From Eledone cirrhosa (lineage: Eukaryota): a stretch of DNA of 64,000 bases. Location of the stretch: positions 181,784,001 to 181,848,000 of the forward strand of contig OZ024742.1 of NCBI GenBank assembly GCA_964016885.1, written 5' to 3'. A program made the translations under genes and the position numbers. Of the stretch, positions 10,124 through 64,000 are shown piece after piece. The notes under the pieces were generated by a model, which was given only the letters and a program-made list of their open reading frames with translations, was not told the origin of the DNA and made no database searches. Within the stretch, counting starts at the first letter, position 1, and the number at the start of each line of letters is the position of its first letter.

Positions 10124-10272
10124 GTGTATATATGTGTGTGTGTATCTATGTGTGTGTATATAGGTGTGAGTGTGCGACTATATGTGTGTGTATATATATA
10201 TATATGTGTGTGTGTGTATATATACATGTGTGAGTGTGCGGCTATATGAGTGTGTATATATATATATATGTC

Positions 10273-12250
<1,978 letters not shown>

Positions 12251-14709: not shown

Positions 14710-17700
14710 CTACAGGCTGATAAAGAGAGAAGGCCCATTCACACGGGCCATTTTCGCTACTTTCACCCACCTTACATAAAACTTGCTGGGGTAGAGCACC
14801 TCTCTCTCCATTCTGATCCTTCTCTTAAAATGGTATTTAAAAAAAAAGACCAGTTGTTGGCCGGAGAGAAAGGTGTCCGACCTCAGCCCTTTCAAACATG
14901 TCCACCATACCACCTCTTTCACCATGGCTATCACACAGAGGAAGACCGCCTCTCCTTCAGTTTTGAAGGGGAGAGGCGGCTTGATCGTTACAAAGGACTC
15001 GGTGGTCAACCGGATTGGTCCCCCCCGTGACAACAGTCGTTCGACATAGCACCACAAATCGGCAACGCCCGAGAAGTGTACCAATGCTGGCGCAACGGTT
15101 TCCTAGTCGAACGCACGCATATGGGACAGATCTTTTTCGAGGGTTCCCTACCCGAGCGCTCGTGTCTGTAGAGCTTTTCTCGAACGCGCAACGCCCCTCG
15201 GTAGCACTGCCAGGCCAGGGATCTCTGGAAATTGTCCATAGGTCCCGGGCCAAATGTCCTCCCGAATAGGCTGGCCAGTTCGTCTTCCTCCATGCCTAGG
15301 GCTCGTCCGAGGGTGTCGTCGCACCTACTAACCACCAGCCCTCTATAGAATGACGAGGTGGAGTCTCCACCCATAGCCGAGTCCGCCTGCCAGAGAGCCG
15401 TGAGCGCCTGGGCACACTCGGTGTGCCAGGCGCCCAGTTTTCTCGGTCTTTGCTTGACCCAGGACTGCAGCTCGGTGAGCGAGTCGAGTCTCGGAAAGGC
15501 TCGCCTCATAAACGGGGCTCACAACGGTTGACCGGTGAGGAATACCTGGAGGTGTTGTAGCCTTAATGCGTGTTTACGCAACAGCAGCCACGGCATCGCC
15601 AGCCCTCCTTTTGAAGGGTGTTGACAGCAGATGGATCTCCTCACCAAAGGAGCCCGCTTCTTCCACAGGTATTGGAAGAGTACGCGCTCCATTTTGGTGA
15701 GCGTTTCCCTTGGGCATGGCACGACGGTCAGGCGGTAATAGATGACGGACGCTATATAAGCTTTCGCCACCTCCGCCCGACCTTTCAGGGATAGTTTGCA
15801 CTCAGCCCACTTCTGCGTCAGCGCAAACACCCTGTTCGATACCTCACCCCAGTTCTTCTCCACCTGGAGATCTGGCCCGAATCAGACCCCGAGCAACTTC
15901 ACCGGGCCCTCCGTCCAACGTCCTACGACGCCGTTGGAGGCCATCGGTTTGCCCCTCCACTCGCCGAGTTGCAAACCGACTGACTTGTCCTGGTTCAGCT
16001 TAGCCCCTGTAAAAGTTTCGTATTCCTCCAGTAAGGTGCCGATCACCCCGATTTCTGAGGCGGTTGACACCATTACTGTCACGTCATCGGTGTAAGCCGA
16101 CACCGCTTTCCGCAATCCCGGTTCCAAAGGGATGCCCAGTAACAACTACAACTTCCGCAGCAGTGGCTTTAGGGCCAATACATACAGAAGGGAGGAGAGA
16201 GGGAATCCCTGTCGGATAGACCGCATGATTTCGAACGGCTCCGACAGGTAGCCGTTCACCTTGACCCTAAACCAGATGCGGCTGCTGTGCATGGCAGTGA
16301 TCCAGCCCCTGAAAACGGGTCCGAAACCTGCCGCCACTAGCACCGCATCCAGGTAACGATGGTCGACCCTATCGAACGCCTTAGATTGATCCAAGTTGAT
16401 CAGGGCCCCACCAAAGCCGGGTTCGTTCCCAACCCTCTCTATGATGTATCGCATGAGATGGAGATTGTCGTGAATGGACCTGGACGGGATGGCGCATGTC
16501 TGCGCATCTCCCACCAGGTTGCCCACGACAAGCGCCAACCTCTTTGCTAACACCTTGGCCAAAATCTTTAACTCTGCATTTAGCAGAGTTATGGGCCTAA
16601 AATTACTTATTTCATCCCCCTTGTTCTCGTCCTTCCTCACTAGCGAGACTACGCCATTGGTCACAGAATAGGGAATTCTCCCGTTCTGTTGCCAGTTGCA
16701 GTAGACCGCCTCGAGGAGATCGAAGAACAAGTCCGGCATACTTAAATACAGTTCGTATGGAAGACCACTGAGGCCCGGAGATTTGCGTCTGCCGCATTGG
16801 CTCAGTACGTCCCCTATTTCAGCAGCTGAGATCGGCCTCTCGCAGGACTTCGCCTCCTCGTCCGAAAGATGCGGCAGGGCGTCAAGGTATGGACCGAGGT
16901 CTACATCCCCATCCGGCCCCTCGCCCCTTCCGAACAATCGGGCAAAGTGCCTTTGAAAGGCCTCGCACATCTGCTTAGGTTCAAGGATCACCCGTCCATC
17001 CTGGTCTCGCAAAGACGGGATAGTGGATCTAATCCCTCTGTTGGCTTCTGTCACTCGGGCCAGCTAACAGCTTTGGTCCCCTCGTTTCCTAGAGCACGTA
17101 TTTTACTTCGGACAACGCAACCTTCGTGTTTCGCGTCGAAGAACTGGGCCAAGGCCGTTCTCGACGCTAGCACTCTGGCTACGTCGCCGCTTCTAATTGC
17201 CTATTCTGCACCATCTACCAACTCCCTTTCCTTCCTATTTCTATCTGAGGCTAACTCCTTACTAACTCCTATTGAAGCTACTCTAATCTCTCTTTTGAGA
17301 GAGCCCCACCACCTGCTGTTGACGTTGGTGCCCGTCAACCGCTCCTTAACTAAAGTACTAATCCGGTCCCTGTAAGCTTTACTTGCCGGTAAGGACAAGT
17401 TGAGCTTCCAGTAACCGGGTCCCTGTCTATGCGTTCTATCAAGGTTGACCATGGAGGTCACTAACTTGTGGTCTGAATAGCCAACCATGAGCATTTCTGG
17501 ACAACTTAAAAAGTCCCTATCCTTATTTCTAACTAAGAACCTATCTAGGTACGATCTATATTGACCACTGTGGTTTGTTCAAGTCCAGGTTGACACAGTT
17601 AGAAAATCTAGTCGATATCTATCGGACAGGTCGAATCTGCCTATTAACCCCTTGAGGCTGTTACAACCCCCTCTATCAGGACATGCCCCTACATAGTCCC

Positions 17701-17960
17701 AACGTGCATCTAGCATACCATTCCAGTCCCCCACTAAAAGCAAGGAGTGGGACGTCCCTAGAAAAGTCTCCAGACGATGGAAGAAGTCCGGCCGCGTTGA
17801 CCCAAAAGGGCCGTAGACGGCGACCAGCCTAAAAGCTCCGCCTTCACCACTGCCAAGGTCCAGACCCACTAGTCGACCCTCCGGGTCCAAGTGTACCGTC
17901 TGTGTAGCGAGACCCAGATGTTTTTGCAGCAGAACGAGAACCCCACTCCACCTCCGGGCT
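14710..17960 (-). pseudogene. Tx1 ORF2 (APE endonuclease-reverse transcriptase), disrupted
   Basis: Collinear ORF fragments 17579-17890, 17201-17494, 16146-17054, 15882-16145, 15519-15863, 15006-15509 and 14710-15084, separated by stops and frameshifts. Confidence 0.9.
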
Positions 17961-17999
17961 GACAGAGAGATGCGTGCATCTCAATGTCATAAGAGGTCA

Positions 18000-20461: not shown

Positions 20462-20649
20462 ATCCCGTGTTCAATCGGAGGTAACCACAGTAAGTAAGGT
20501 ACTCAATAGATAGCAGCGTATAAATATTTAATATAGAAATGGCTTCTACAGGACTAGAACTGTTTCGTTCGAAGGAAATCATCAGGAAGGCTTACCTGAT
20601 TATATCCTTCGACTGAACAATTCTAAACATGTAGAACCCATTTCTATAT

Positions 20650-20656
<7 letters not shown>
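20462..20656 (-). mobile_element. Palindromic HHR mini-element, family A
   Basis: HHR on minus 20543-20589 (cttc-CTGATGA-tttccttcgaac-GAAA-cag..ctg-TA-gaag), with a decayed inverted arm to 20656. Confidence 0.8.
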
Positions 20657-20692
<36 letters not shown>

Positions 20693-23374: not shown

Positions 23375-24705
23375 TCTAGTCCTTCGCTCAAGATTAATCT
23401 ATAAGTTTAGATGTCTGCCTTCGTTTAAGTAAATATTACAGTAAGATTTTTAATATAAACAACTACAAAAAACAATTAATATTAAAACGAAAAAATTATC
23501 AATGATAAAAGAAGCGGATGCAACTTTTTTTTTTATAAAGTTATATTCCTGTTTCTTTAAAGAACATTTCATTTTTGTTCTATTGTAGGCGAAATAATGC
23601 AATGGTTTAATAGGGAAGATATAACTTACCAATTATGTCTCTAACCGTTTAACGCTTTTTAAGTAGATAACTACAATTGAAAATACTAAAGAAATGGAAC
23701 CAACAATTCAATTTGAAAGTCGTCTACTTATAGTGACAGTGTATTACTGGTACTTTATTTTATCGACCCCGTAACGATGAAATGCAAATGCTTAAAATTT
23801 AAATTGCCTTAATTCTATCGTCTGCTGTTTCATTAAAGGGAGATTCTCGTCTGTATTTAATTCTATCGTCTACTGTTCCACTAAACAGATATACCTCCAC
23901 TATCGTCTCGATTTATACATTTTAACTTATAACTTATACACATTTGATTTGAAATATTTTATCTAGTCCCCCCTCTCAATATTATGATGATTTCTTTCGA
24001 ATGAAACAGTTCTAGTCCTGTAGAAGCCATTTATATATATAATTGAACTGAGTTAAAAATTCACAATATTTATAATTAAATAAGCTCATATATATATGTG
24101 TGTATTTATCTGTTTATTGTATTATATATAATGTGTGTATATACAGGATGTCCCCCAAAAATATATACACACTTCAACAGCATTCTAATAACTATTGCCT
24201 GTACAGGTAATCAAAGTGTCAATCGAATGTTAGTTTCGTGTTTTAACAGTACAAATTTACAATACACACATAACACACATAAAACCAGTGTATATACATA
24301 CATGAGTGTGTATACACATACATGAATGTGTATATACAATATATATGTATATATATATAGACACATATATTCACGGTGCAACGGAACATTAAAATATAGA
24401 TGCGGGAGGGGGGGGTATATATAGGGGCGCTGGGGATAAAGGAGTGTAAAGCGTGTGTAATTGATGTATTGAAGGAGAGGAGCGTGCAGCGATAGAGTAA
24501 CAAATATATAGAGAGGGGGAGAGATGGTATTGAAGGGGAGGAGTGCAAAGCGAAAGAGTAAGAGAGATATATATAAAGACGGAACAGATAGAGAGAAACA
24601 GGCGTAAGTAACAGTGGAAGAGATATATAGAGAGGGGGAAATGTGTTATTGAAGGGGAGGAGTGTAAAGCGAAAGCGTAAGATATATATAGAGAGAGGGG
24701 GAATA

Positions 24706-25029: not shown

Positions 25030-25664
25030 ACCGCCTTCGGCCAAGAATGACCATGGACTTTGCCCCAATAATGTTCCTTTCCGAGGTGCAAACCAGGGCG
25101 AGTTGTTTTTGTGGAGACCAGCAGTCATCCATGCATACTAGCTGTGAATCTAACTCTCTAATCATTAAGCCACGCGCCTTTACAAACACACACACATATA
25201 TATATATCTATACATGCAAACACACGCACTCTACCATACCTCATACAACCACATAACTTCGTCATTGGTATAAGGTTCTCACGTTGTCTTTGCTCTCTAT
25301 TCACAGCCTTTTCAAAATGGTATAAAGAATGAAGAGCCAGACTAGAACTATGAAATCGTTTCGTGTATCATTGAGTGTTGATTGAGATATTTCAGTTAAA
25401 TCGACGCCTGTTGGCTTCTTACAATACGACATCGATAGATTCCTCATATACATATTAAGAATAGTTTTCCAAAGATCAATGGAAAATGACCCCAGTAAAA
25501 TAAGGAACACAGTACATTAGTTGAAAAGGTTCATGGTTTGGTTTATTTATTATTTTGTATAGAAATGGCTTCTGCAAGACTGGAAATGTTTCATTCGTTT
25601 GCTGATAATTTTAAAGGAATGAAACTGTTCTAATGCTGTAGAAGTCATTTCTCTATAAAATATA

Positions 25665-29481: not shown

Positions 29482-30602
29482 GGTGATGACGGTCTTTTGA
29501 CGATGACAAAGTGCGGCCCACGCGCTTGCGACAGGTTCTGAAAAGAACTCACTGCCTTCTTTAAAGGATTCAACCTCTCCAAACAGGTTGACGCCAACCT
29601 CTCGGTCGTTAATTACCTCGACGTCACCCTCAATTTGTCGAATGGCTTGCACTACCCGTATAGAAAGCCGAATGATACGCTTAATTACATAAGTAAGCAT
29701 TCTAACTATCCTGCCAGCATAACCAAGAACCTGGTAAGAAACGTTTCTTTGAGGTTTTCCCGTCTATCAACAAAAGAGCATATTTTCACCGACCATTCCC
29801 TGTATTACAATGAAGCTCTTGCTCGGAGTGGATTTGTCGATAAGGTAGCATATACCGAGTATGAGCATGACCTAGGAAAAATAGATCCCGACTCATTATA
29901 TGGTATAACACATCATATAATATGAAGGTGACCACATCATTAGCTAAGATCTTTCTCTCCCTTATTATGAAGCTTCCCCCCCCCCCAGCACATAAATATA
30001 ATAACATTTTAGTTAAGGCTAGATTATATAACGGAAATAAAAGACCATGTGACCTCTGCGCCGCTGAAACCCTGGAAATACTCTACGCCAATGACCACAT
30101 CTTAAACAAAACATCTGAGGCATTTTCGGCTTGTAAACATAAATTGCATAAAAGTTTCCTGTATTACAGCCCCACATTTTACCCTAACGGATAGTACGAA
30201 CTATACGCGGATAATTTACGTCTTGATGTGGTAGCTAATTATATTTTATATTTATACCATTACTTATTTGTATAGGTAAGTATATATTACCTGTATGTTT
30301 TGTGAAGGTTCGTATACTTTCTCGTACTTATATTTGCTTGTACTTGTTATAGGCGTATATATTATATAATATATACTGGTACATGTGTATATGGTTATGT
30401 GTATACGGGAGTTTGGGGTTTGTGTGTGTATGTGGGTTTGCACGTATGTAGGGTGTGTGTATATGTGTACTTTGTGTTTTGGTTGACGTAATTTTAGCGA
30501 ACATATGTGTATTTACTTGTAGCTTCGTATGTGCGCGCGTTATATACGTAATTATGTGTGTATATTTATATACGTTTATATAATTATATGTATACACGCA
30601 CG

Positions 30603-32999: not shown

Positions 33000-34985
33000 A
33001 ACAAAACATAGTGAAGACATATAAGGTGTAAACAGGTGAGATATAGATAATATTTTCTATAGATTATAGATACTTCTGAATGTTTTGGATTGGCGATGTC
33101 TGCAGGAACTGAATAATGCTTTTTTTTTTCAATATAGTTTTGGCTGGTAAGTATATGAAAAGTTTCCTCAATACACAAATGACAAATTCTTGAGAGAGCC
33201 ATATTTCGGTATGCGGGCGCTTTCGAAATCGTTTAATAGTCAATATTATTGTCTTTTAAGTACCAAATTAGACGTGAAAGTGATGTTGAAAATGTTTTGT
33301 CTGATCTATTAAATGTATGTTTGTGATTATACCAGCGTTCCTAAAATTTTGTAGAAGTGGATCCTATATAGTTATATATTTTATCTCTAATTTTTACTCT
33401 GTATTTATATACTAAGGTTTTATCTAGACAATTATTCTGTAAAGGGCAATTTAATTCGTTTCTACAGTTACATTTTGCAGAGTTGTTGTCAATAGGAAAG
33501 GTACGATTATTATTAGCATTAATATTATTATTAGTAATATTAATATTGTTATTTTGGTTTATTTGGTTTGGGTTTAAATTTAAGTTTCTATTATTAATTC
33601 TATTAATATTTTGTGCTATGTTCATAGTAGTAGAGTAAGATAGTTTTATAGTATGTCTGTTAAAAATAGAATGGTATCTATGGGATTTAGGAAAACATTT
33701 ATCTAATGCTTTGAAAAATAGGTTTGCTACATGTGTTTTAACTCGTAATGAGAATGGGGGAGAGTACCAAATAATATTTCTAGTTCTAGTCCTTTTGTTT
33801 GATTGACTAATTATGTTAAATTGCTTATTGTTATTATTATAATAAATTTTAGGATGAAATTTCATGTTACTGTTATCTAAGTTTTTAATTTTATTCATGT
33901 AGCCAGCTCTATGTAGAGCATCATTGTAATATTCTGCCTTATTTTCAAAGATATTTTTATTAGCTGAAATGCGTGAAATTCGTTGTTGGACACTATTGAC
34001 AATAGTATTTTTTACATTTCTAGGATGGTTAGAATTGAAGCTTACATAGTTTAGGTTTTCATTAATCTCATGGAAAGGGCAATATAGACCTTAGCTAAGT
34101 GACATCTAAGAAGTTAACAGTGTTATTATTATTCTCAATTTCTAATTTAAGGCTGTAATTATTGAAAAATTCAATGATACTTTTCTTTTTCCTATTAAGT
34201 TCGCTATTGCTATGATTGTCGACTATAAGTAATATATCGTCGCGATATAAACCTCCGGCCATCTCTGGCATTTTTCTATGTAGAATAAATATTCCAACGA
34301 GGTCTGTTACTTGGGCTGAGTGAGATGATCCCATTGTGATATCGAAATTGTTCTGTCTATCAGCCCTTGTCCAGAGATGGTTATTAAATTCAATTAGGGT
34401 TTTACGTGCGGTTAAAATGATATTTATTTCTTCACTAGATAAGTCAGTATATTTTGAAGCATAAATAAGTGCCTTATTAAGTAAGTTAGGGGTAACTGAG
34501 GAGTAGTAATTAGCAATATCCATTTGTATAAATTTTTTCTTATGTTTTAATTTAATGTCTGCAAACCAATCTATTACTTCATTAGTACCGTTCCATAGTT
34601 TAAGGTGTGATTTTTGCTTAAGTGCTGGTATAATCCTATCTAGTATATGTTTGCTAATTATGCCTAAATCAGACTTAGATGGTGCAATAAGTCTGACTGG
34701 TAGTTCTACTTCGAAATTTCTTTTGTGGTCCTTCATATTTATCTTCGGTTTCCTTGGTATGAAAGGTTCAGTCTTATTTTGGATACCTAATTTTTATATG
34801 ATTTCCGAAGCTTCTTTATTAAGGGTTTCATTAGAGGTTTTTTTTATAGTTCTTCCTAAATTCTTTCAATATTAAATTATTATAATCATCCTTTTCTATC
34901 CCGTATAAATTATTAGTTTTGTCAGATTTTACAAGAATCTTCTTTGTTTTTTTCAGGTTGTCTAGTTTGTTTTTGAGGAACCAAT
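33000..34985 (-). pseudogene. Decayed PLE ORF (RT + GIY-YIG), related to 38313-40715
   Basis: Frameshifted ORFs 34831-35019 (KSDKTNNLYGI), 34095-34736 (ELPVRLIAPSKSDLG, LYRDDIL), 33341-33898 (IIWYSPPFS, CNCRNELNCPL, YIGSTST) and 32990-33202 (CHLCIEE). Confidence 0.92.
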
Positions 34986-35304: not shown

Positions 35305-35353
35305 ATCCAGAATTGAGCCGGGGTTAACCACAATGAATATATATATTTACACT

Positions 35354-35843: not shown

Positions 35844-36796
35844 CCCATTTGCTTATAATAGTGAGAGCGTGGGTTGCCATTTGCTTATAATAGTGAGAGC
35901 ATGGGCTGCCATTTGCTTATACTAGTGACAGCGTGGGCTGCCATTTGCTTATAATAGTGAGAGCGTGGGCTGCCATTTGCTTATAATAGTGAGAGCATGG
36001 GCTGCCATTTGCTTATAATAGTGAGAGCGTGGGCTGCCATTTGCTTATACTAGTGACAGCGTGGGCTGCCATTTGCTTATAATAGTGAGAGCGTGGGCTG
36101 CCATTTGCTTATAATAGTGAGAGCGTGGGCTGCCATTTGCTTATAATAGTGAGAGCGTGGGCTGCCATTTGCTTATAATAGTGAGAGCATGGGCTGCCAT
36201 TTGCTTATAATAGTGAGAGCATGGGCTGCCATTTGCTTATAATAGTGAGAGCGTGGGCTGCCATTTGCTTATACTAGTGACAGCGTGGGCTGCCATTTGC
36301 TTATACTAGTGACAGCGTGGGCTGCCATTTGCTTATAATAGTGAGAGCGTGGGCTGCCATTTGCTTATAATAGTGAGAGCGTGGGCTGCCATTTGCTTAT
36401 ACTAGTGACAGCGTGGGCTGCCATTTGCTTATAATAGTGAGAGCGTGGGCTGCCATTTGCTTATAATAGTGAGAGCGTGGGCTGCCATTTGCTTATACTA
36501 GTGACAGCGTGGGCTGCCATTTGCTTATACTAGTGAGAGCGTGGGCTGCCATTTGCTTATAATAGTGAGAGCGTGGGCTGCCATTTGCTTATAATAGTGA
36601 GAGCGTGGGCTGCCATTTGCTTATAATAGTGAGAGCGTGGGCTGCCATTTGCTTATAATAGTGAGAGCGTGGGCTGCCATTTGCTTATAATAGAGAGAGC
36701 GTGGGCTGCCATTTGCTTATAATAGTGAGAGCATGGGCTGCCATTTGCTTATAATAGAGAGAGCGTGGGCTGCCATTTGCTTATAATAGTGAGAGA
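35844..36796. repeat. 32-bp minisatellite, ~30 copies
   Basis: Unit gctgccatttgcttataatagtgagagcgtgg, with recurrent variants (atactagtgacag; gagcatgg; tagagagag) and no spacers. Confidence 0.97.
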
Positions 36797-37631: not shown

Positions 37632-37671
<40 letters not shown>

Positions 37672-38039
37672 GGAGGTGAGTTTTATTGTAGTACAATAAA
37701 GCAATGCAGATATCGGATAAGAAGCACTCTACAGTTTGTGGGACTGGAGTATGCATAATATAAGATCAAAAGATGGTTTTAATTTATACAGTATCTTCCA
37801 ACGGCTTTCAACCCCTCTATATAAAATATATCTCCTCTCTGTTATAAAAACTATCTCTTTCTCTCTATCACCCATCTCTCCCTCTCATCTCCTTCCCTTT
37901 TCATCCTTTTCTCTCCCCCCCTCTCTAAATAAAATATTTTTCCCAATATCACACATCAATCTAAAACCACTTTTCATATGTTGATTTAAAACTGCACTAT
38001 CAACAAGTGTTTTTTTAGCCTTCATATCATGTTCTCCTG

Positions 38040-38106
38040 TTTTATCTGATGAAAACACAAATATTATTGTTTGATGATGTTTGTTTTTGAAATGCGCATA
38101 ATAAAA
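38040..38106 (+). ncRNA. Type I hammerhead ribozyme in the 5' pLTR
   Basis: ttttat-CTGATGA-(long stem II aaacacaaatattatt/gatgatgtttgtttt)-GAAA-tgcgca-TA-ataaaa. Stem I is ttttat/ataaaa and stem-loop III is palindromic. Confidence 0.85.
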
Positions 38107-38312
38107 TATATTGAACTCCTTTAACCATCTTTTGATCTTATATTATGCATACTCCAGTCCCACAAACTGTAGAGTGCTTCTTATCCGATATCTGCATTGC
38201 TTTATTGTACTACAATAAAACTCACCTCCTACATTTACTTGCTCCTTAACGGTTGAGCGCTTACTCTCATATTGGATACCTTTTGATGGTCCTTCACCTC
38301 TTCTTCTACAAC

Positions 38313-40715
38313 ATGGATTATTACAACATAACCAATTCTACTAAAGACATTCCTATACCTGGTAAATCTGAATTCACCAAACTTCTTATTGAAAAAACTG
38401 ACTCCTTCGTAAGAAGACTTAGATGGACAGCCTATTTCTATGACCAGCGCCTAAAAGGGAACTTTCATACCAAAGAACACAACTTCCTCGATCATCTTTT
38501 TAATTCCAGACGAAATCCTCCTTCCAACAAAAATCTAGCACAATTCGAGGAAGAATTAACTAAAATTATAAAAAATCTTAAATTCAAGAGATACCCTTAC
38601 AAAGGACAAGAGCACCTTGTAAATCTCAAGAACACAATCTCTAACCTAAATTCCTCAAAAAATGTTTTAGTCCACTCTGACAAAACCAATAACCTATATG
38701 GTATTTCCAAGGATAATTATAACAACCTTATCCTAAAGGAACTTAGGAAAAAGTATCGTAAAACCAACCATGAAAATTTAGAATGCATAAACCTTGAAGC
38801 CTATGAGATTATGTCAAAACTTGGCATTGAAAAAAAGACCGAACCATTCCTCCCAAGAACTCCGAGGATAAATCTCAAGGATCACAAAAACAATTTTCGC
38901 ACTGAACTACCTGTTAGATTAATCGCCCCCTCTAAATCTGATCTGGGGGTTGTTAGTAAAGCCATCTTGGATAGGATTATCCCACAGGTTAGTTCTAATT
39001 GCTCTTCTTTAAACCTAAATTTATGGTTTGGTACTTCTGAAGTGATTGGCTGGTTCAACAAATTGGATAATAAAAACAAACTAAAATTTATTCAATTCGA
39101 TATTGCCAGCTACTATTCCTCCATTTCGCCTTCACTTCTCAATAATGCTCTATCTTTCGCACTTAAATATTCTGACATCACCACAGATGAACTTCACATC
39201 ATCCTCACCGCACGTAAAACCATCCTAGAGTTCAACAACGAATATTGGACCAGAGCCGATACCTCTAACAACTTCGACATCACAATGGGAGCATCCGATT
39301 CATCCCAATTGACTGATTTAATTGGTATCTTCATTTTGAACTCTTTGAGTCGGAAAATTCCTCAACTTCGCGGTGGAATTTATCGTGACGATGGACTCTT
39401 TACTATCCTAAATTGCAATATAGTTAAACTTAATATTATTAAGAACAATATACGTAATCTCTTTAACCAACATAACCTAAAAATTGAATTTGATAATAGT
39501 ACCAAACTAGCTAATTTCTTGGATGTATCTCTTAATCTTGACACTGGCCTATATTACCCTTACCATAAAAACAATGAGAATCTTAATTATGTTAACTTTA
39601 AATCTAACCATCCTACCAATATCAAGAATGCTATAGTTAATAATATTGGAAATAGAATATCTAACATATCTTCTAATAAAAACATCTTTGATGCTAACGC
39701 CAATTACTATAATAACGCACTTTCTAAAGCTGGCTATCCAGATAAAATCAAATATAATAAAGAAACAAATTCTAGGAAAACTTACAGTAGAATATTTAAT
39801 CATAACCATTCCAATAATTTTAATAAAAGACCTAGATACAAAAACATAATCTGGTATAATGCTCCTTTCTCCATCTCTATTAATAACAATATTCCTAAAT
39901 TATTTTTTAGTGCCTTAAATAAATGCTTCCCTCCCTCACATATCTATAGTAAAATATTTAACAAACACACCATTAAATTTTCGTATTCTACATCCTCCAA
40001 TATTTCCAACATCATTTCTAAACACAACAACAAAATATTAAATACTAAATCTCTTCCTTCCAATATTGAATCTCATAATAACAATAATAGTACTCCTGAC
40101 GTCATTGTAAACCCTAGGCTAACTTCTGTAAACCCAAATGCAACGTCAAACACAACTTCGCTAAATGTTCATAATCCAACTCTAAATCAAGAAACTATTA
40201 TTCCTATTATTCCTATCGCAAACAACTTCTCCAATCCAATTCCTTCTATAGATAACACTAGATCACTCATTAATAATCTCTCTAATTGCAACTGCCGCAT
40301 TAAAAATAAATGTCCTCTCAACAACCATTGCCTCGATAAAAACTTAATTTATGAATGTAAAATTATAACTAGCACCAACTCCTTCACCTATTTTGGCTCC
40401 ACTTCCACCTCTTTTAAAGCTCGTCTCTATAATCATCATTCATCTTTCAAATACAAACTTAAAAGAACTAACACTGCTCTCTCAGAACTCATATGGTCCT
40501 TAAAAGACAAAAACATTAAATATAACATCTTTTGGAAAAAGATTTCTTCTGCATCCTCGTACTTGAACAGTTCTCTATCTAAAATCTGTAATCTCTGCCT
40601 AAATGAAAAATTTACCATTATCTCTAACCTAGAATCCATAATAAATAGACGCTCGGATTTGTTTTCCATCTGCCTCCATAAATTCCATAGGACTTTTCAC
40701 AAAGTATACAGTTAA
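38313..40715 (+). CDS. PLE polyprotein: reverse transcriptase, Cys-rich linker and GIY-YIG endonuclease
   Basis: The ORF track gives 820 aa from a TTG at 38253; the likely start is the ATG at 38313 (acaacATGg). Motifs: SDKTNNLY, PVRLI, QFDIASYYSSI, ITMGASDS, IYRDDGL (RT catalytic), FLDVSL, SNHP, IIWYNAPFS, CNCR..CPL..C, LIYEC...TYFGST...FKARLYNH (GIY-YIG), CNLCLNEK. Confidence 0.95.
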   Translation: MDYYNITNSTKDIPIPGKSEFTKLLIEKTDSFVRRLRWTAYFYDQRLKGNFHTKEHNFLDHLFNSRRNPPSNKNLAQFEEELTKIIKNLKFKRYPYKGQEHLVNLKNTISNLNSSKNVLVHSDKTNNLYGISKDNYNNLILKELRKKYRKTNHENLECINLEAYEIMSKLGIEKKTEPFLPRTPRINLKDHKNNFRTELPVRLIAPSKSDLGVVSKAILDRIIPQVSSNCSSLNLNLWFGTSEVIGWFNKLDNKNKLKFIQFDIASYYSSISPSLLNNALSFALKYSDITTDELHIILTARKTILEFNNEYWTRADTSNNFDITMGASDSSQLTDLIGIFILNSLSRKIPQLRGGIYRDDGLFTILNCNIVKLNIIKNNIRNLFNQHNLKIEFDNSTKLANFLDVSLNLDTGLYYPYHKNNENLNYVNFKSNHPTNIKNAIVNNIGNRISNISSNKNIFDANANYYNNALSKAGYPDKIKYNKETNSRKTYSRIFNHNHSNNFNKRPRYKNIIWYNAPFSISINNNIPKLFFSALNKCFPPSHIYSKIFNKHTIKFSYSTSSNISNIISKHNNKILNTKSLPSNIESHNNNNSTPDVIVNPRLTSVNPNATSNTTSLNVHNPTLNQETIIPIIPIANNFSNPIPSIDNTRSLINNLSNCNCRIKNKCPLNNHCLDKNLIYECKIITSTNSFTYFGSTSTSFKARLYNHHSSFKYKLKRTNTALSELIWSLKDKNIKYNIFWKKISSASSYLNSSLSKICNLCLNEKFTIISNLESIINRRSDLFSICLHKFHRTFHKVYS

Positions 40716-41373
40716 TATTCAATTCTTTATCAATTTAGAATCTTTTCTCAAAGGCACATATACATACACCTCTTTAAAATATACCCATCTACCTTACTTT
40801 AAAGGGCATTATACACTCTATAGTACTCGTTTATTCATTTACCTCATCCTATCTTCTCGTAAAACAATAACATTTGTTTTTGACATTTTGAATATTCATC
40901 TGCAATCATTATTATTTTTTTTTTTTTTTCCCTCTATCATAAATCTTTTTAATCTCAATTTCATCCTTAATTTATTATTATATATTTTTTTTAATATATA
41001 CTCATATATTCTTTAAAATATACCCATCTACCTTACTTTAAAGGACATTATACACTCTATAATACCCGTTTACTCATCACCCTCATTATATCTCTTCGTA
41101 AAACAATAACATTTGTTTTTGACATTTTGAGTATTCATCCGCAATCATTATTATTTTTTCTCTCTATCATAAATCTTTTTAATCTCAATTTCATCCTTAA
41201 TTTATTATTATTTTTTTCTCCCCATCAACGAACTCATTATTAATACATATGAATTCAATATAAAAACTTTAACTTCACATTATTTTTCTCAAATCCTATA
41301 CATAAACATTTTCTCTTTACTAATTTTAAGATTCCTACATTTCTCCTTTTGAATATTCACCCACAATTATTAT

Positions 41374-41404
<31 letters not shown>

Positions 41405-41982
41405 CTCTCTATCTCCATACATAATCTCCCTTCGTTATTTTTTTTTTCTCTCTATCTCCATACATAATTTCCCTTCGTTAATTTTCAAATTCCTTTAATT
41501 TATACATTATCTTCCAACGGTTCCCAACCTCTCTATATTAAAACATTATATCTTTTTCTCAGTTATAAAAACTATCTCTTTCTCTCTATCACCCATCTCT
41601 CCCTTTCCACCTTCACTCTCATCTCCTCCCCTTTTTTTCATCCTTTCCACCCCCACCCCTCCCTAAATATAATATATTTTTTCCTCGCACATATCCTCCC
41701 TTCGTTAATTTTCAAAAATTTTTAATTTATACAGTATCTTCCAACGGCTTTCAACCCCTCTATATAAAATATATCTCCTCTCTGTTATAAAAACTATCTC
41801 TTTCTCTCTATCACCCATCTCTCCCTCTCATCTCCTTCCCTTTTCATCCTTTTCTCTCCCCCCCTCTCTAAATAAAATATTTTTCCCAATATCACACATC
41901 AATCTAAAACCACTTTTCATATGTTGATTTAAAACTGCACTATCAACAAGTGTTTTTTTAGCCTTCATATCATGTTCTCCTG

Positions 41983-42049
41983 TTTTATCTGATGAAAACA
42001 CAAATATTATTGTTTGATGATGTTTGTTTTTGAAATGCGCATAATAAAA
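41983..42049 (+). ncRNA. Type I hammerhead ribozyme in the 3' pLTR
   Basis: Same sequence as 38040-38106, offset by 3943 nt. Confidence 0.85.
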
Positions 42050-42081
42050 TATATTGAACTCCTTTAACCATCTTTTGATCT

Positions 42082-42121
<40 letters not shown>

Positions 42122-46971: not shown

Positions 46972-48702
46972 GTAAATAGATAAATAGATAAGTAAATGAA
47001 TAGATGGGTATATCGTGTTATAGATAATTGTTTTAATGAGTTATGGGGGATATTGGTTTTGTATTTAATGTAAGTAAATATTAAGTTAAATTAAATTAAA
47101 TTAACTGAGTTAATAAGAATATTTATATTTATATATATTAAAATGGGAAGATACGGAAGTTTTGTTTATTTATTCGTTAGTATCAGACTATTTTGTCAAA
47201 ATAAGTATAAATGTTGAAAGATATATTTAGCCAGAATTAGTTAGTGGTTATAAATCTAATAAAAGATATTGAAAAAATATAAAAAAATTGAGAAAAAATA
47301 AAAATAAAGAAATAATTTATAAGAGGTAAGTAATTTTTAAAAAATAAATAATTTTTAAAAAGGGATAAAAAATTAAAGAAATAAAAATAAAAAATAAAGA
47401 ATTAAAAATTATTAAGATTAAAATTACAATTAAAATAAAAATATATATTTAAAAAAAAAATATTATTAAATATTATTTAAATATTATTAAAATAAAAATA
47501 TATATAAGTGAAATTATAGCAAATGTTATAGATATGGTTTAGAGAAATCAATATATTAAAACCAAGTGGATGAGATTGTTATGGAAATAAGTAAAAATAT
47601 TATAAGTGTAATTATAATTTATATATAGTTCTAAATGTTGAATTCAGGCGATGTCTACAAGAATTAAATAAATTCGTTCTTAGATTAATAGAGTTCTTAC
47701 ATTTAAGTATGAAAAATATTTCCTCAACACACAATTTGCAGAATCTAGATAAAGCTGTGTTTCGGTAAACGGGTGCTTTCTAAATTATTTCCCAAGTTAA
47801 TGAAAAGTTCATATTTTTGCATTTTAAGTTCCATATCAGGTTTGAAAGAGAAGTTGAAGATTTTTTATCAAATCTTTTGAAAGAGCATTTGTGATTATTC
47901 CAGCGACGTTTAAATTCTGTAGAAGTTGCACCTACATAGTTAAATATATTATCACTGGTTTTGACTGTACATTTATAGACCACGTCCTTATCTAAACACT
48001 TATTTTGTAAAGGACAGTTTAATTTCATTCTACAGTTACATTTTGAGGCGTTGTTCTTATTCAGAACGGTACTATTATATTGGATATTGCTAGAGATATT
48101 ACTGCTATTTTGGTTATTTTGGTTATTTTGGTTAGGGTTTAAATTTTTATTATTGATTCTATTTATATTTTGTGCTATGTTCTTAGTAGTAGAGTAGGAT
48201 AGTTTTATAGTATGTCTGTTAAAGATTGAGTGGTATCTGTAGGCTTTAGGAAAACATTTATCTCGTGCTTTAAAGAATAGCTTTGCTAAAGGTGTTTTTA
48301 ACGCTTAATGAGAATGGGGGTGAGTACCAAATAATATTTCTCGTTCTATTTCTTCTGTTAGTTTAAGAGTTTAAGTTTGATTTTTTATTATAATTATAAT
48401 TAATAGTAGGGTTATTTGCCTTAATATTGTTGTCGATGTATTTAATCTTATTTATATAGCCTGCTCTATTTAAAGCTTCGTTATAATATTCTGCCTTATC
48501 GTCAAAAATGTTTTTATTAGTGGAGATGCGTGAAATACGTTGTTGGATAGAATTAACAATAGTGTTCTTGATAGATCTAGGATTATTAGAGTTAAAACTT
48601 ACATAGTTTAGATTCTCATTAATTTTATGGAATGGATAGTATAGCCATGTGTTAAGGTTTAATGTTACGTCTAAAAGTTAACAATTTTATAGTTATTCTC
48701 TA

Positions 48703-50928: not shown

Positions 50929-53542
50929 ATGTGTGTGTGTGTGTGTGTGTGTGTGTAATTGGTTTTCTGCCAAATATAAATAAATTAATATCTATTGCTG
51001 TTTATAGCCAGTGTTGGATGGTGGAGTATGATAGTGAAGTGTAATGAATTATTAGCGTCCATCAGACGTTGAAGTATATTAATGAACTGACCAAGCGTAA
51101 GATTCGGGTCAGAGAGATAAATAAATGAAAAAAAAATGGGATGCCTCATTGCAAAGCCAACTTTATTCTTTGCTTTGTTTTGAGGCGGGGATCTAGCTTC
51201 AATAGTTCCGCACTCTTTTGTCTATTGACTGGAGATACTGGCGTCGCTCGTTGCCGACTCGATTACGAGCAGTTATTTGCCTCTATCAGATACCGTATCT
51301 TATCATCTTCTCTACCATAAACACTTAGATGAGTTTTATGTTCCGACATTATTTTAAATGTTTCTCTTTTTCATTTTTTATAATATATGTGGCAAGGAAT
51401 TTGTTCAAAGACATCATCAATATGTACTGCACTCGGGTACATTACTCCAAAATGGATTTTCAGTCCGGAAGTGAATGTATAAAGGGGAGCAGTGCCTGGG
51501 TGGGGTTGCTGGAATAACATGTGATTGGGAATAGACCCTAATATCCGGTGTAGAGTTAATGGTAGGATATGTGAAGGAGTATAATTATCTAAGGGAACTG
51601 ATGTTGATATTGTTGCTGTTTAGCCCAGGTGAGACCAAAATGAGTGGACTTATGATGTTGTTTATGCCCTGATCCTATGGCAGGAGAGTGACTTATTAGC
51701 TCAGTGTTGTTTAACTAGACACATAGGTTTCTAAATAACTTGTCTTTTATAGAAAAAATCTAGCTCACGCTATCGGCCACAGTTTACCCAAAAGTAATAA
51801 TTGGAGTCAAAGCAAAAACCCCAGTTTTCAAAATGCACAAATAAGTCATTGTCCTCCTTTCTCTTGCTTGTTTTGGCTACACAATACTGCTAAGTAGTAT
51901 TTAGATAGCAAAAAATGAGACGAGATTTCCATTTATGTTATTGTCATTAAAAGTTTCAGAATTCTTTTTGTTTGGTAAAATATTTGTGTATGTGTGAGCG
52001 AAAGTTTTGTTGTTGATGTTATTGCCAAAAGTATCATTTGGATTGTTCGTATTAATGTATTCAAGGCAACATTATCCATAAAACTGTCAAGGCTGAAGCT
52101 CCGGAGGCTCGCAAGGACTAGGGACTAACCATTTATTTATTTATCTTTATTTTACTGTAGTTAGGTGAAAGATTGAAGTACCAGCTGGTCCTGAAATAAC
52201 GGGAAGACAGGGTTCCCGCTCTGGGTTTATACGACGATGGGGTTAGTGTCTATAACAGTGTTGTAATTATTTTCCTTTAAAACGTATTTTACTGGGAAAC
52301 ATTCTAGTAAGATTTTTTTTCGCGTGTATAAACTGTTGAGTTACGATAACCTTCATTAAGTTCGATTTGGTGGATCTTGCGCAAAGTTATGAAGTACATG
52401 TGTGTAGAAAGTAAAATGAAATTTTAGCTAAAAACATCCGTTTTTTCTGAGCCCTATATGGGCAATTGTCCAGATTTTCCAATTCATCTCATGTGGATAA
52501 TAATTTCATAAACTGTTTTCCATATAGTATCCCTAGATAATATTAAGAAATATGAAGAGGGAAATGATAAGTCATTTGTTACAAATTAGTAGTCAACAAC
52601 AAGAACAACAACAACAAGAACAATACCAACAACAACAATAATAACAGCAACCGCATTATTTTGAATTACATTGAATTCTCCATTGAAAAATGTATTAAAA
52701 GGCTAACATATAATATTTATGTACTTTGGTAGAGTCATACTTTTTAATTAAAACAGGCGCACCGAAATATTTTTCATTTCAGTTTTCATAATTAATCAGG
52801 TATTCATCCATCATCGGCTAATTACTTAATTGTTAAAACCCTCTCATCACACAGTCAGTGACCTTATCAATGACGTTTTGTCCTTTGTGTTTCCTCTGTG
52901 GCTTGACTTTAACTTTATTCCATCTTGCTCTATTTGTCTTTCTGAGACATTAACCAAATGATGGATGGATTCATACATTACCTGATTAATAATATAGCCG
53001 AAGTGAAACGCGACTGATTGGCAGCATGAACCTCCCCAAGTGCAATATTATTTGTTTCAAAAGAAAATTTCACATAAAGAGTCTTGCTAAACAAAATTTA
53101 TTATTTCATACTGTTTGTTTCCTTTCAATAGAACTAAAGGCGGTGATGTAACAGTGTTGTTATGATGTCAGATAAAATTATTTTCGGTATTTGTTCTGGC
53201 GCCCTGTGTTCAAAGCCCCTCGTCGTCAATTTCCCTTTTCATCATTTCGAGGTCGATAAATAAAGTATCAGTTCCATACTGTGTCAACTCCCACACCCCG
53301 ATCTCTCTCTCTCTCCCTCTCTCTCGATCGATATATATATATATATATATTTAACATAGAAATGGCTTCTACAGAACTAGAACTGTTTCATTCGAAGGAA
53401 ATCACCAGGAAAGTACTTTCCTGATATATTTCCTTCAAATGAATCAGTTCTAGTCCTGTAGAAGCCAATTCTATATTAATTATTTATACTCTGCTATGCA
53501 TTGAGTACCTTACTTACTGTGATACACACAGAGAGAGAGAGA

Positions 53543-55330: not shown

Positions 55331-55875
55331 TAGCTCACCAGTTGGTGCTACTGGAAACATGTATCCCAGTACAACCTGTCTCATGGTCGGGTTGTTGGCG
55401 ACTAAACTGGCAACCCCACCAAGGTTTCCTGGTGAGGAGGGTGACTTTGGACATCCTGCAGGACTAAAAACAAAACCTGTCAACGGGAAAAGTAGCTCTT
55501 AAGAGTCAATGGCCATCCAAAATCACCGGGAGAGATGATCCCTTAGCCTTTGTGAAGACAGAATTCTAGGAGAAGGAAAACTCTGATGGTATCCAATGAT
55601 GTTGACTTGTTCTTCTTTTTGGTAAATATCATCTTGGTTAAGAGAGTGGGACTGGCTTTGTGCAGTGCCTTTGCTCACTATAAAAGCTTCACGGCAGAGG
55701 TATTGATTTATATCTGGAGATCTCTCTGCACTTGTCGTTACATGGTACCATGGGCCCAGCACTATGTGTCAATAATTGTCACAAGTGTAGTGTTTGTACC
55801 AGAGTTTTCAAGTCACTGGCTGGACTAAAATGTCACACTTGTTCAGCGCATCGGTAGGGGTTCTCCTACATGGAT
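55331..55875 (+). mobile_element. Copy of the same RTE-derived retroposon
   Basis: Matches 5896-6458, with a small internal deletion. Confidence 0.85.
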
Positions 55876-55949
55876 ACATACATACACACATACATACATA
55901 CATACATACATACATACATACATACATACATACATACATACATACATAC

Positions 55950-56450
55950 ATAGAATATATTGAGACAGATGGCACAAAAGAATACTGGTGGAACCTGAAA
56001 ATAAAAACTGCCACCAAATTAAAGCACAACCGAACTGATATTGTTGTTTGGGACCACACATTGAAAACGTGTTCTGTTTTGAAGTTCAGTTGCCCACTTG
56101 ATGTAAACGTTGTCAGAAAAATACAGGAGAAGGAGGACATCTACGGACCATTGATGAGGAGTTTACAAATCCAGTATCCAAGATACAACTTTAGTTTCAT
56201 ACCCATCATTATTGGAGCTACGGGTTATATACCAACCCGCTTGGAACAAAGTATGACTGAACTTGGATTTGCGGACAAAGAGCGCAGCTCCCTAATTCAT
56301 AGTCTACAAATGACTGCGATAGCTGGGACCTTCAAAATTTGCAAAACATTCTTGCGATTCAAGGGATGACAATATCTTTTCTTTTACAACCTTGCCACCA
56401 GGAAGGTGGCCGGTCAAAAAAATATACTCGAAATTAAGAGAAAGAGATAA
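55950..56450 (+). mobile_element. 3' fragment of an RLE-type LINE (R4/Dong-like): restriction-like endonuclease domain and 3' UTR
   Basis: HNRTDIVVWD...FSCPLD...KEDIY..L...PIIIGATG matches the R-P-D..E..K..Y...PIIIG RLE signature. Flanked by (CATA)n on both sides. Confidence 0.8.
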
Positions 56451-57547: not shown

Positions 57548-57757
57548 GCACACATATAAATATACATATAAATACAGACAGAAACGCACATATATATATA
57601 CATACATTTATATATATATACATACCCCCTCCCCCATATATATATATATATATACACACATATATATATATTTATTAAAATAACAGATTAAAGTTTAAGC
57701 AAAGAATCGCTGCTTTCACCCTTAAAGGGATCTTCACATTTATTATTACTACTACTA

Positions 57758-57788
<31 letters not shown>

Positions 57789-57789
57789 T

Positions 57790-58009
57790 TTTTATTTTAT
57801 AGAAGGAGCTTCTACAGGACTAGTACTGTTTCATTCAGATGAAATCTTCAGGAAGCCCTTCCTTCAGGAAGCTGCTTCCTGAAGATTTCATCTGAATGAA
57901 ACAGTACTAGTCCTGTAGAAGCTCCTTCTATAAAATAAAAAAATTTTACTCTGCCATGTATTGAGTACCTTACTTACTGTGGTTATCCCCGACTCAACCC
58001 GGGACCTAC

Positions 58010-58010
<1 letters not shown>
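57790..58010 (+). mobile_element. Palindromic HHR mini-element, family A (two intact hammerheads back to back)
   Basis: Plus 57874-57922: gcttc-CTGAAGA-tttc-atct-gaat-GAAA-cag-tactagtc-ctg-TA-gaagc. The mirror copy is on minus 57808-57856. The tail reads tactctgccatgtattgagtaccttacttactgtggtta, then (TA)n. Confidence 0.88.
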
Positions 58011-58047
<37 letters not shown>

Positions 58048-58082
58048 TTGAAAATTGCAAACTTGACTGTCACCACACATTA

Positions 58083-58121
58083 TGAACCTGAAGATTGCGA
58101 AAGCATGAAAGTACTTGTTCA
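58083..58121 (+). ncRNA. Minimal type I hammerhead motif
   Basis: tgaac-CTGAAGA-t-tgc-gaaa-gca-t-GAAA-gtac-TT-gttca: 5-bp stem I, GNRA-capped stem II, palindromic loop III. Confidence 0.78.
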
Positions 58122-58233
58122 ATTAACACTTAGAATTTAATATTCTATCATACTATTTAATTATAATACCATTATAAATTTTAAAGGATTGTAAATAAAA
58201 CGAGTAAATCAGACAAAGTTGGAATTCCTCTTA

Positions 58234-58989
<756 letters not shown>

Positions 58990-60775: not shown

Positions 60776-60819
60776 TTTGTTTGTTCATTTTCAAATATAT
60801 ATATATATATACATACGTT

Positions 60820-61003
60820 ATTCCGGGTTGAATCGGAGGTAACCACAGTAAGTAAGGTACTCAATACATTGCAGAGTATAAAAGTTTTAATATAGATGAG
60901 ATTCTACAGGACTAGAACTGTTTCATTCTTTAGAAATCATTCCTGATGATTTCTAAAGAATGAAACAGTTCTAGTCCTGTAGAATCTCATCTATATTAAA
61001 ACT
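60820..61003. mobile_element. Palindromic HHR mini-element, family A
   Basis: HHR on plus 60939-60985 (attc-CTGATGA-tttctaaagaat-GAAA-cag..ctg-TA-gaat). Inverted arm and tail at 60820-60938. Confidence 0.82.
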
Positions 61004-62132: not shown

Positions 62133-62596
62133 CTACGTTTAAAGAAATAGTGGTCTATTTTTCTGGACACTATCTAAAAAATGCAAGTGTAGAAAACATG
62201 TTTAACAAACACTGCTATCATTCACTCAGTTGCAAAACAAACAAACAAATAAAAAACAATAACAAAAAAAACAACAAACAAACAAATCAAATCAAATCAA
62301 ATCAGTGCTGTCCTTACACCAGCAGCAAATTTGTACTCACAGTCATATATGATCCATGCAACAATTTCACAGTCATACGAACCATGGAGCTATCTGACAT
62401 CTACACATAAATTAGCATATATATTCGTATATATCGCAATGGTAGGTTAGTGATATCACCATTTTCCATACAATATTTATAATATAGCATATTAATGTTT
62501 TGTGGATCCAGTAGAAGTACATCGATAATAGGACAACAGAAGCCCTCGTACTCAGCTGTGAACAGAACCCTAGAGAATTAATAAGAATTATATATA

Positions 62597-62795
62597 TGTT
62601 TTAATTTAGAAAAGCTTCTACAGGGCTAGAACTGTTTCATTCGTGAGAAATCACCAGGAAGTGCTTCCTGATGATTTCTCACGAATGAAACAGTTCTAGT
62701 CCTGTAGAAACTTTTCTATATTAAAACATTTATACTCTGCTATGTATTGAGTACCTTATTTAATGTGGTTACCCCCGATTCAACCTTGAATAACT
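62597..62795 (+). mobile_element. Palindromic HHR mini-element, family A
   Basis: HHR on plus 62665-62709 (ttc-CTGATGA-tttctcacgaat-GAAA-cag..ctg-TA-gaa). The inverted arm is upstream. More decayed copies lie at 53350-53522, 25558-25660 and 23980-24035. Confidence 0.82.
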
Positions 62796-62820: not shown

Positions 62821-63007
62821 ATAGGAACCAGTAAGACCCCGACGGCTGAGCTCAAGCCGTTTCGACGGCTAATTCAGAATTAACCGTCGAAACGGCTTGA
62901 GCTCGGCCGTCGGGGTCTTACTGGTTCCTATTACTCACTCTACTACCCTAAGTATTGAGTACTTTGGTGCGTTATGGTCCACCTGGTTCCTTACCACATT
63001 TCCTTCG

Positions 63008-63009
<2 letters not shown>
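62821..63009 (+). mobile_element. Palindromic mini-element, family B (3' half of a hammerhead)
   Basis: Inverted repeat 62821-62931 with apex ~62876. Each arm has GAAA-cggc..gccg-TC-ggggtc but no CTGANGA. Related copies: 45574-45765, 50364-50580, 43915-44090, 44488-44610 and 49395-49565. Confidence 0.8.
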
Positions 63010-63079
<70 letters not shown>

Positions 63080-63083
<4 letters not shown>

Positions 63084-64000
63084 TTAGTCTCATTCATTCT
63101 CAGCCCCACACTCATCGACACAGTCTCAACCTCCCGCATCAAATTCACTGTATTTGTCACCAAAACTATGTCGTCGGCAAATTCAGCATCTGATACCTTT
63201 TTCGCCTTAACTCTCCTGCTCTGAGCCGGTGCTACAGTAAAGCCAGAGTTCTGGTGTTTCTCCAGTGCAAGGCGCATACAATAGTCCACTACGATGATAA
63301 AAAGGTAGGGAGCCAATGTATCTTCCTGGAACACTCCAGCCAGTATCTCAAAGAACTCTGTCATCCCATCAGGTGTAATGACTTGGGCTTTGGTGTTGGT
63401 GTAGAGCAGTGATACCAGGTCCACTATCCTCTTGGCGATTCCATAAGCCTGTAAGATCTTCATCAGGCAGTGATTGGGAATACGGAAGATGATGTGGTTG
63501 AGAGGAAGAGCAAAGCCTGGGCGGAGTGCCACAGCTTGAGATCGATGTGGAAGTCGGACCTTAGTAAAGACCTGAATATCCGCCTCTTCATTGCTATAGT
63601 GGAGTCTGTGCTGCTGTACGGGTCTGAGACTTGGACACTGACCAAGAAATTCATTCAGATGGTGGATGGGTGCTACACGAGAATGCTGAGGATGGCTGTG
63701 AACATTAATCAGTATACACTGAGGATGAAAAACTCAGAGCTGTAAGGGAGCCTCCCAAAAGTCAGCTCAAAAGTGACACAGGGGAGACTGAGGTTAGCTG
63801 GATATGCTCACCGACATCCAGAGTTGACACTGCACTCAGTGCTCCTGTGGGAGCCCCTACATGGACACACTGGAAGAAGAAGACCAAGGTTAACGTATGT
63901 TGATGCCCTAAGGACAGACACTGGTCTGTTGGAGACGCAGGCCATGGCATCGATAATGAGGGACAGAGACCGCTGGAGAGAACTCGTCCATGGATCTCGG
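63080..64000. mobile_element. RTE-group LINE fragment with 5' inversion
   Basis: Minus strand 63080-63475 encodes RT motifs GVFQEDTLAPYLFIIVVD...FADDI. Plus strand from ~63475 encodes the downstream IRLFIAIVESVLLYGSETWTLT...RML and RLRLAG segments. Runs off the window end. Confidence 0.85.

Follow-up and report, generated by a model that had tools for sequence, protein, structure and literature searches.

Hammerhead-bearing mini-palindromes in Eledone cirrhosa as likely by-products of a young Hydra-clade Penelope-like element

Family A, a short hammerhead-bearing repeat of the cephalopod Eledone cirrhosa, is, near certainly as judged from its sequence, the pseudo-LTR (pLTR) end of a young Hydra-clade Penelope-like element (PLE), comprising its hammerhead and tail. 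The palindrome in which this end is usually found is likely built anew at each insertion, by the head-to-head joining of two run-off cDNAs. The mini-palindromes would accordingly be by-products of an element of known type rather than a novel element that propagates itself. Family A is a new family in a known clade, and its by-product is real, young and abundant.

Positions given here are those of the window, the whole stretch of 64,000 nucleotides that was analysed. Within the unit, q1 is window position 57874, the G that opens hammerhead stem I, and q0 is the A that precedes q1 in longer copies. The predicted cut lies after q44, and the tail ends at q137. All seven copies that the sequence-only reading had placed in the window were located there (7/7, Table 1). 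The head-to-head inverted arm that it described is present in six of the seven, with arms of 46-71 nt that are 78-100% complementary; the copy at 23980 is without one. In the focal copy, the arms are 68 nt each and are separated by a 17-nt spacer. The proposal of a ribozyme on both strands was not confirmed, as only 5 of the window's 13 arms have an intact core, and the focal copy alone has one on each strand (1/7). The tail, put at about 90 nt, measures about 66-70 nt beyond the short end. At 35313-35339, a stretch of 27 nt weakly resembles the family A tail.

Table 1. Family A features and copies in the window
Feature	Position	Strand	Basis or remark
Inverted short arm of the focal copy, hammerhead and A-rich stretch without tail (q1-68)	57789..57856	-	100% complementary to 57874-57941; core intact
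Junction specific to the focal copy, containing a further 12-nt antisense copy of q0-q11	57857..57873	.	Sequence; junctions vary between copies
Minimal type I hammerhead, palindromic stem III, predicted cut after 57917	57874..57922	+	Motif scan, folding, covariation
A-rich stretch with short end (q59-71), putative first reverse-transcription start	57923..57945	+	Outer end of inverted arm at q59-71 in 64/67 copies
PLE tail, end at q137 as putative second reverse-transcription start	57946..58010	+	Continues to the ATG of the ORF in full-length copies
(TA)n target tract; matching tract at ~57759-57778	58011..58044	.	Sequence
Older copy with its tail arm on minus and a single intact core	20462..20661	-	Arm and core scan
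Single short arm cut inside the core, without inverted copy	23978..24040	+	Arm and core scan
Decayed palindrome (78%), both cores broken, without tail	25551..25662	.	Arm and core scan
Older palindrome, both cores broken, tail shortened	53342..53522	+	Arm and core scan
Second subfamily (loop TAAA); tail arm begins inside the core; short arm on plus with intact core	60817..61003	-	Same subfamily upstream of Hydra ORF in L313
Third subfamily (loop TCAC), one intact core	62591..62795	+	TATA-bearing relative in L031

The link between the type I hammerheads and PLEs, drawn by the sequence-only reading, is borne out by copies in which hammerhead and tail are continuous with an RT/GIY-YIG ORF, and the ORF is reached on both sides of the unit. 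Upstream of the hammerhead, many identical copies share one non-coding sequence. In L032, a 433-codon open frame (YRDD, CNCPDKTTC, GIY-YIG region) is followed by 1.7 kb and then by the identical hammerhead and tail on the same strand. The motifs of this parent ORF are YRDD, CNCPDKTTC, YIGMT, CDLC, and CMH. A genome search with the L032 ORF gave 1,151 candidates, with 98-100% identity in the 40 that were scored. Downstream of the tail, L315 holds an uninterrupted 814-codon frame whose ATG lies 184 nt after q1, and in which YRDD is followed by CNCPDKTTC and then by YIGMT. By motif order, this single ORF consists of the RT and, at the C terminus, a GIY-YIG endonuclease. L052 and L057 are partial tandems in the order 3′ UTR copy, hammerhead, tail, leader, ATG. 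Family A therefore has a hammerhead in its terminal repeat and the layout of pLTR and partial tandem. The loop-TAAA subfamily, seen in the window at 60820, stands upstream of a related ORF in L313. In L304 and L310, the upstream pLTRs start right at the TATA box beside a TA-rich tract and just keep the putative promoter. In L185, the tail continues into another element, without the ORF leader.

Membership in the Hydra clade is a match by motifs and by the (TA)n target rather than by a tree, with the published Hydra proteins compared by eye. The family A ORFs contain RIRWR (RWA/RWS context) and DKT motifs, with RWR instead of RWK, and the endonuclease and linker carry CxCX5C (CNCPDKTTC), CxxC (CDLC), and CxH (CMH). 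The CCHH motif was not seen in the ORF on inspection by eye, and Pfam gave no match to the RT or to the endonuclease of family A. At E<=1e-30, a protein search with the ORF retrieved 35 relatives, most of them at 34-55% identity; a predicted protein of Octopus vulgaris shows 90% identity over 26% of the ORF, which suggests an octopod host. The tail is followed by a TA run in 97 of 100 copies, by a shorter TA run in two, and by the ORF leader in one; target-site duplications are unreadable inside (TA)n. Hydra-clade PLEs, including Hydra-1_Obim, are described with the same set of characters, namely a C-terminal GIY-YIG, RWK-like, DKT, CxCX5C, CxxC, and CxH motifs, a near-end hammerhead, (TA)n insertion, and a cephalopod host (Craig et al. 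2021, PMC8557442). The sequence-only reading named no such family from cephalopods; the supplement of PMC8557442 already lists a hammerhead-bearing Hydra-clade PLE from Octopus bimaculoides. That element, Hydra-1_Obim, is a separate family with a differing hammerhead. Family A is about 4.3 kb long with a low-complexity 3′ UTR of 1.7 kb, whereas elements of the clade are given there as "generally <3 kb". It also has a clear pLTR and partial tandems, and the available part of that account does not include stubs.

The window itself contains a full-length Hydra-type PLE of another family (37669-42090), with an 821-codon open frame at 38250-40715. It was ruled out as the parent, because its ORF shares 36% identity with that of family A and it has a different hammerhead and tail. 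The hammerhead of this element, in which TGCGCA forms a palindromic stem III, is present at 38046 and 41989. The element also shows the partial-tandem pLTR layout and, at 37669-37780, an inverted tail, and it lies between (TA)n tracts. Decayed Hydra-type ORF fragments are found at 10170-10607, 29542-29925, 33341-34793, and 47780-48304. Other repeats in the window are a broken non-LTR retrotransposon with an RVT_1 domain (15006-17980, minus), LINE fragments (55791-56369 and 63008-63733), and a minisatellite of 32 bp in ~30 copies with 96% matches (35845-36795). The (TA)n tracts gather several PLE families. Family B (58046-58235) is a second hammerhead-bearing end in the (TA)n tract of the focal copy; its exact hammerhead occurs 4,826 times in the genome, and it shows the same two-ended, fold-back, TATA-linked pattern as family A. 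A third recurrent end (62822-62880, L011, and L317) has a hammerhead-like GAAAC...palindrome...GTC on the minus strand, folds back, and often shares these TA tracts. A fourth short repeat end (57670-57745, L003, L004, L008, L012, L023, and L028) is repeatedly found beside family A in (TA)n.

In the 3.0-Gb assembly, family A is abundant. The focal 137 nt have at least 41 identical full-length matches (40 scored of 775 candidates). The genome-wide search with the tail that the sequence-only reading had suggested found 1,510 exact copies of a 40-nt tail motif and none of the reversed control. Related loci number seven in the window, eight in the next 200 kb, and four in 400 kb elsewhere, with both orientations present in 13 of these 19; extrapolation from 12 loci per 600 kb suggests roughly 30,000-120,000 related loci. 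Sequencing runs X4 and X6 gave no matches to family A, and X1 gave poly-G matches only. In run X8, the summed contig depth falls about tenfold at the q1 boundary; this value gives no copy number and is not counted as evidence.

The structure of the copies was read in the first 100 exact-tail matches on one chromosome, which were taken regardless of their 5′ side and of which none was dropped. The anchor was the tail of one young subfamily, three of the 100 belong to one triplication, and inverted arms were classified against the reference with its repetitive part left aside. In 34 copies, the tail arm begins at q-2..+2; it begins at +3..+14 in 19, at +15..+43 in eight, at +44..+47 in one, and at +48 or later in eight. 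The remaining starts are at -299..-3 (12 copies) and further upstream (18), so 30 copies reach beyond the hammerhead. An adjacent inverted arm is present in 67 of the 100, and 53 of the 100 are mini-palindromes. In 64 of the 67, the outer end of the inverted arm lies at q59-71, and the tail is therefore on one side only. Direct repeats are limited to one pair split by (TA)n (L035) and one triplication of 1.06 kb (L207).

According to the sequence-only reading, the hairpin is the genomic form of a distinct non-autonomous mini-element, which would itself be transcribed and re-inserted and would encode a working ribozyme on each strand. The mini-palindrome is indeed the commonest form, six copies share one perfect junction, and near-identical copies are very numerous. 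However, when the fold-back positions were mapped, as that reading had advised, the 53 mini-palindromes fell into 44 junction types. The commonest (six copies) is a perfect join on AGCT, and some types recur with the arms swapped, e.g., (0,4)/(4,0) and (2,8)/(8,2). In longer palindromes, the fold-back lies hundreds of bases upstream, and the same inverted arm is also present in ORF-bearing copies. Varied junctions, longer fold-backs, and ORF copies with the inverted arm together form a continuum without a master hairpin. The unit is also continuous with an autonomous ORF on both sides, and the conserved TATA box lies 30 nt outside the stubs, which lack it. Two intact cores occur in only one of the seven window copies. 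We regard this reading as largely refuted and as very improbable. The predicted folding of the hammerhead weighs against it as well.

The anatomy of the hammerhead agrees with the earlier description: stem I GCTTC/GAAGC, CTGANGA, GAAA, stem III CAG/CTG, and a GUA site. Stem II is 3 bp and is closed by a U.U pair, and stem III surrounds a near-palindromic loop. A motif scan found the core elements CUGANGA, GAA, A15.1-U16.1, and H17. Loop II varies between copies while the stems are kept, as had been noted; among 114 distinct motifs, stems II and III barely vary. Covariation in these 114 motifs consists of one compensatory change in stem I between subfamilies (C-G in 57, A-T in 22), which counts as a single evolutionary event because two subfamilies dominate the set. 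The G10.1-C11.1 pair is absent, with U.U at positions 10.1/11.1 in 111 of the 114. An Rfam scan of the window (E<=1) showed no hammerhead among the matches listed (150 of 195 rows), which were mostly miRNA models driven by microsatellites. Folding z-scores of about -1, for the hammerhead and the tail each alone, give no support from stability.

As a monomer, the hammerhead fold is predicted at -5.1 kcal/mol, against an MFE of -8.2 kcal/mol. The dimer is predicted at -22.6 kcal/mol, compared with 2 x -5.1 (a gain of ~12 kcal/mol), and 14 of its 16 stem III pairs are intermolecular. In the best-folding dimer (-26.8), stem II is paired in such a way that the GAAA core is hidden. The whole hairpin folds at -136.7 kcal/mol, and inside it the probability of the hammerhead stems is near 0. 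On either strand, the complement would be transcribed before the hammerhead and would pair with it, so the hammerhead is predicted to be locked in the hairpin, which speaks against a working ribozyme per strand. Besides being locked in this way, the stub hammerheads are predicted to be weak and to depend on dimers. Lunse et al. are said to have found in 2017 that PLE hammerheads with a short stem III cleave as dimers. Related minimal PLE hammerheads are described as inactive as monomers, and with their short stems, palindromic helix III, and likely weak action as dimers they resemble that of family A (Cervera and de la Pena 2014, PMC4209133). Family A differs from them in the U.U in place of the conserved G10.1-C11.1, the 3-bp stem II, and the longer palindromic stem III.

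The 5′ ends of the arms provide the main clue to the origin of the stubs. The sequence-only reading had stated that randomly 5′-truncated ends of an autonomous PLE would be ordinary debris. This applies in part: the copies do derive from the ends of an autonomous PLE, yet the truncation points are non-random and pile up at one site. With the triplication collapsed, q-2..+2 holds 68 of the 163 arm ends (13.6 per nt), compared with 0.16 per nt at -60..-3 (58 nt), and the end density falls ~85-fold just upstream of q0. Hammerhead cleavage was rejected as the cause of truncation, as only 1 of the 163 ends lies at the cut site (q44-47). The sole copy that begins exactly at the predicted cut site, q45, is L204 (C1:106465206-106467246), which may reflect a cleaved template or chance.

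In unfolded copies, TATAAAT begins 30 nt before q1. At least four subfamilies retain TATAAATACCA and the CCA|G step despite a diverged spacer in between, and the genome contains 597 exact promoter-hammerhead junctions. The base that precedes the +1 A is also informative. For arms that stop at q0 and whose next base does not derive from the other arm, this base is G in 11 of 13 ends, compared with 4 of 36 control ends (p=3e-6). An untemplated G is a known mark of cap copying in SVA/L1 (PMC3287187). Most of these Gs are the last base of a short templated insert and may themselves be templated, and family B is without such a G. In 16 of 20 arms that end at q1, the +1 A is replaced by T, often as GT, whereas the genomic templates have A in 597 cases and another base in six. 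L043, L044, L223, and L225 have A at +1 in one arm and T in the other. The T may possibly result from a misreading of the first, cap-adjacent base, perhaps a modified A. In L317, the cDNA runs to q1, jumps into the ORF start, and has a second end at q0.

The pile-up could instead reflect hammerhead stem I, acting as a structural stop or as a hot spot of microhomology, and not the RNA 5′ end. The peak is at the edge of stem I, and AGCT (q0-q3) is self-palindromic, so the six perfect joins inflate the peak of subfamily 1. In subfamily 2, AGAT replaces AGCT and fold-back nevertheless occurs in the same zone, as read by eye in 30 loci, a biased set since the query contained the fold-back. In family B, whose sequence is unrelated, the pile-up lies ~40 nt before the hammerhead and tracks the TATA box. 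Among its first 30 hammerheads, 10 copies end 31-33 nt from their own TATA box, nine run further upstream, and 11 end later. The steep fall in end density upstream of q0 and the non-genomic G, or T for the +1 A, at the peak also argue against a structural stop, which we consider improbable.

The run-off mechanism, which is likely from these sequence patterns, can be outlined as follows. A putative TATA promoter in the upstream pLTR would start a capped RNA at the A (q0) before hammerhead stem I. The element protein would nick both strands of a (TA)n tract and prime reverse transcription at two internal sites, as demonstrated in vitro with an anole PLE. If priming takes place on the 5′ copy of the tail, both cDNAs would reach the RNA 5′ end, after ~65 and 137 nt. 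The two cDNA ends would then be joined by microhomology or short templated inserts, leaving a promoterless stub.

The inverted arm may instead arise when one cDNA snaps back and primes itself, or through use of an antisense template, as in the model of PMC3846280, and not from a second RNA-primed cDNA. This agrees with the 33 of 67 joins that are symmetric within 4 nt, some of them centred on local palindromes, and with the arms of a copy usually sharing subfamily variants. However, in 17 of the 67 the inverted arm reaches beyond the tail arm on the 5′ side by more than 4 nt, and in another 17 the reverse is seen; in L202, L229, and L205 the inverted arm holds up to ~80 nt that are missing from the tail arm. 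The inverted arm also has its own fixed outer end at q59-71, in line with the two start sites described in vitro (PMC11167929). The unequal arms (17 vs 17 of 67) favour two cDNAs over snap-back with trimming, although trimming of a snap-back hairpin could also give uneven arms. The family A data thus favour two cDNAs over the self-priming model, which we hold to be the less likely origin of the inverted arm, though one of some weight.

The two-cDNA mechanism may also act on other donors. In this variant, the RNAs would mostly be short non-coding transcripts of TATA-bearing truncated copies, mobilised in trans like a SINE, and the palindromes would still be dead ends. The 597 promoter-hammerhead junctions outnumber the roughly a dozen copies that are at least 91% identical over the ORF start (40 scored), as such a donor would suggest. 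By analogy, the anole PLE points the other way, as its template is reported to need ORF sequence downstream of the start sites (PMC11167929), which the solo ends are without. We consider short donors a minority possibility, about as doubtful as snap-back.

The literature already contains inverted pLTRs and tails, hammerhead pairs on opposite strands, and a Hydra family from Octopus. Typical PLE insertions are described, as in family A, with a head-to-head inverted 5′-truncated copy, a one-sided tail, junction palindromes, and a pLTR that contains a putative TATA and Inr (Arkhipova et al. 2013, PMC3846280; Craig 2021). They differ in that both arms of family A are often cut at one site, which makes the whole insertion ~200 bp, and in that the tail is ~66-70 nt in family A and 30-40 in typical PLEs (PMC3846280). 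The putative TATA and Inr are those of the Adineta pLTR (PMC3846280); Drosophila Penelope is described with an internal promoter without TATA (PMC2377424). Dual hammerhead motifs 100-700 bp apart on opposite strands are reported from Schistosoma (PMC4209133). The anole Poseidon element PAc, as characterised in vitro (Frangieh et al. 2024, PMC11167929), shares with family A an AT-rich target, a hammerhead beside the ORF start, and two internal start sites that bound the tail. Both target strands are cut and extended by PAc, and uncleaved RNA is its main template (PMC11167929). PAc belongs to another clade, and neither run-off palindromes nor a TATA-set 5′ end is among the features described in the accessible part of that paper. 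Non-LTR retrozymes are, like family A, non-coding, carry a type I hammerhead, and are kin to PLE pLTRs, but they form head-to-tail arrays expressed as circles, whereas family A forms head-to-head single stubs that are continuous with an ORF-bearing parent (PMC7229834; bioRxiv 10.64898/2026.07.22.740005). The repeat annotation of Octopus vulgaris includes active Penelope families, and its main text does not contain "hammerhead" or "palindrom" (PMC13282606). We found no account of start-site run-off palindromes in PLEs in the open-access literature; subscription papers, Repbase/Dfam entries, or bioRxiv supplements may hold one.

As an element, family A is ordinary, being one more Hydra-clade PLE family, yet it is young and abundant and has a copy with an uninterrupted ORF. 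Its value is mechanistic. The origin of PLE inverted repeats is stated as open (PMC8557442, PMC3846280), and the arm-end statistics from thousands of near-identical stubs point to two cDNAs and a TATA-set RNA start. For annotation, the stubs are a warning, since they resemble MITEs, miRNA hairpins, or double ribozymes. If they were transcribed within introns or UTRs of the host, perfect duplexes of 70 bp would result, which could plausibly be substrates of A-to-I editing or small-RNA pathways. A bolder and decidedly speculative picture takes the stubs as a fossil record of the PLE reaction. A protein dimer would load two capped RNAs, possibly paired via the palindromic stem III, prime both nicked strands at two fixed internal sites, and join the cDNAs. 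Linear RNA would then yield run-off palindromes that mark the start site and carry a copied cap G and a misread first base, and ribozyme-made circles would yield long copies and partial tandems. If true, this would explain the inversions, tails, and tandems of PLEs together, and the hammerhead would serve both in template pairing and as a switch between linear and circular RNA.
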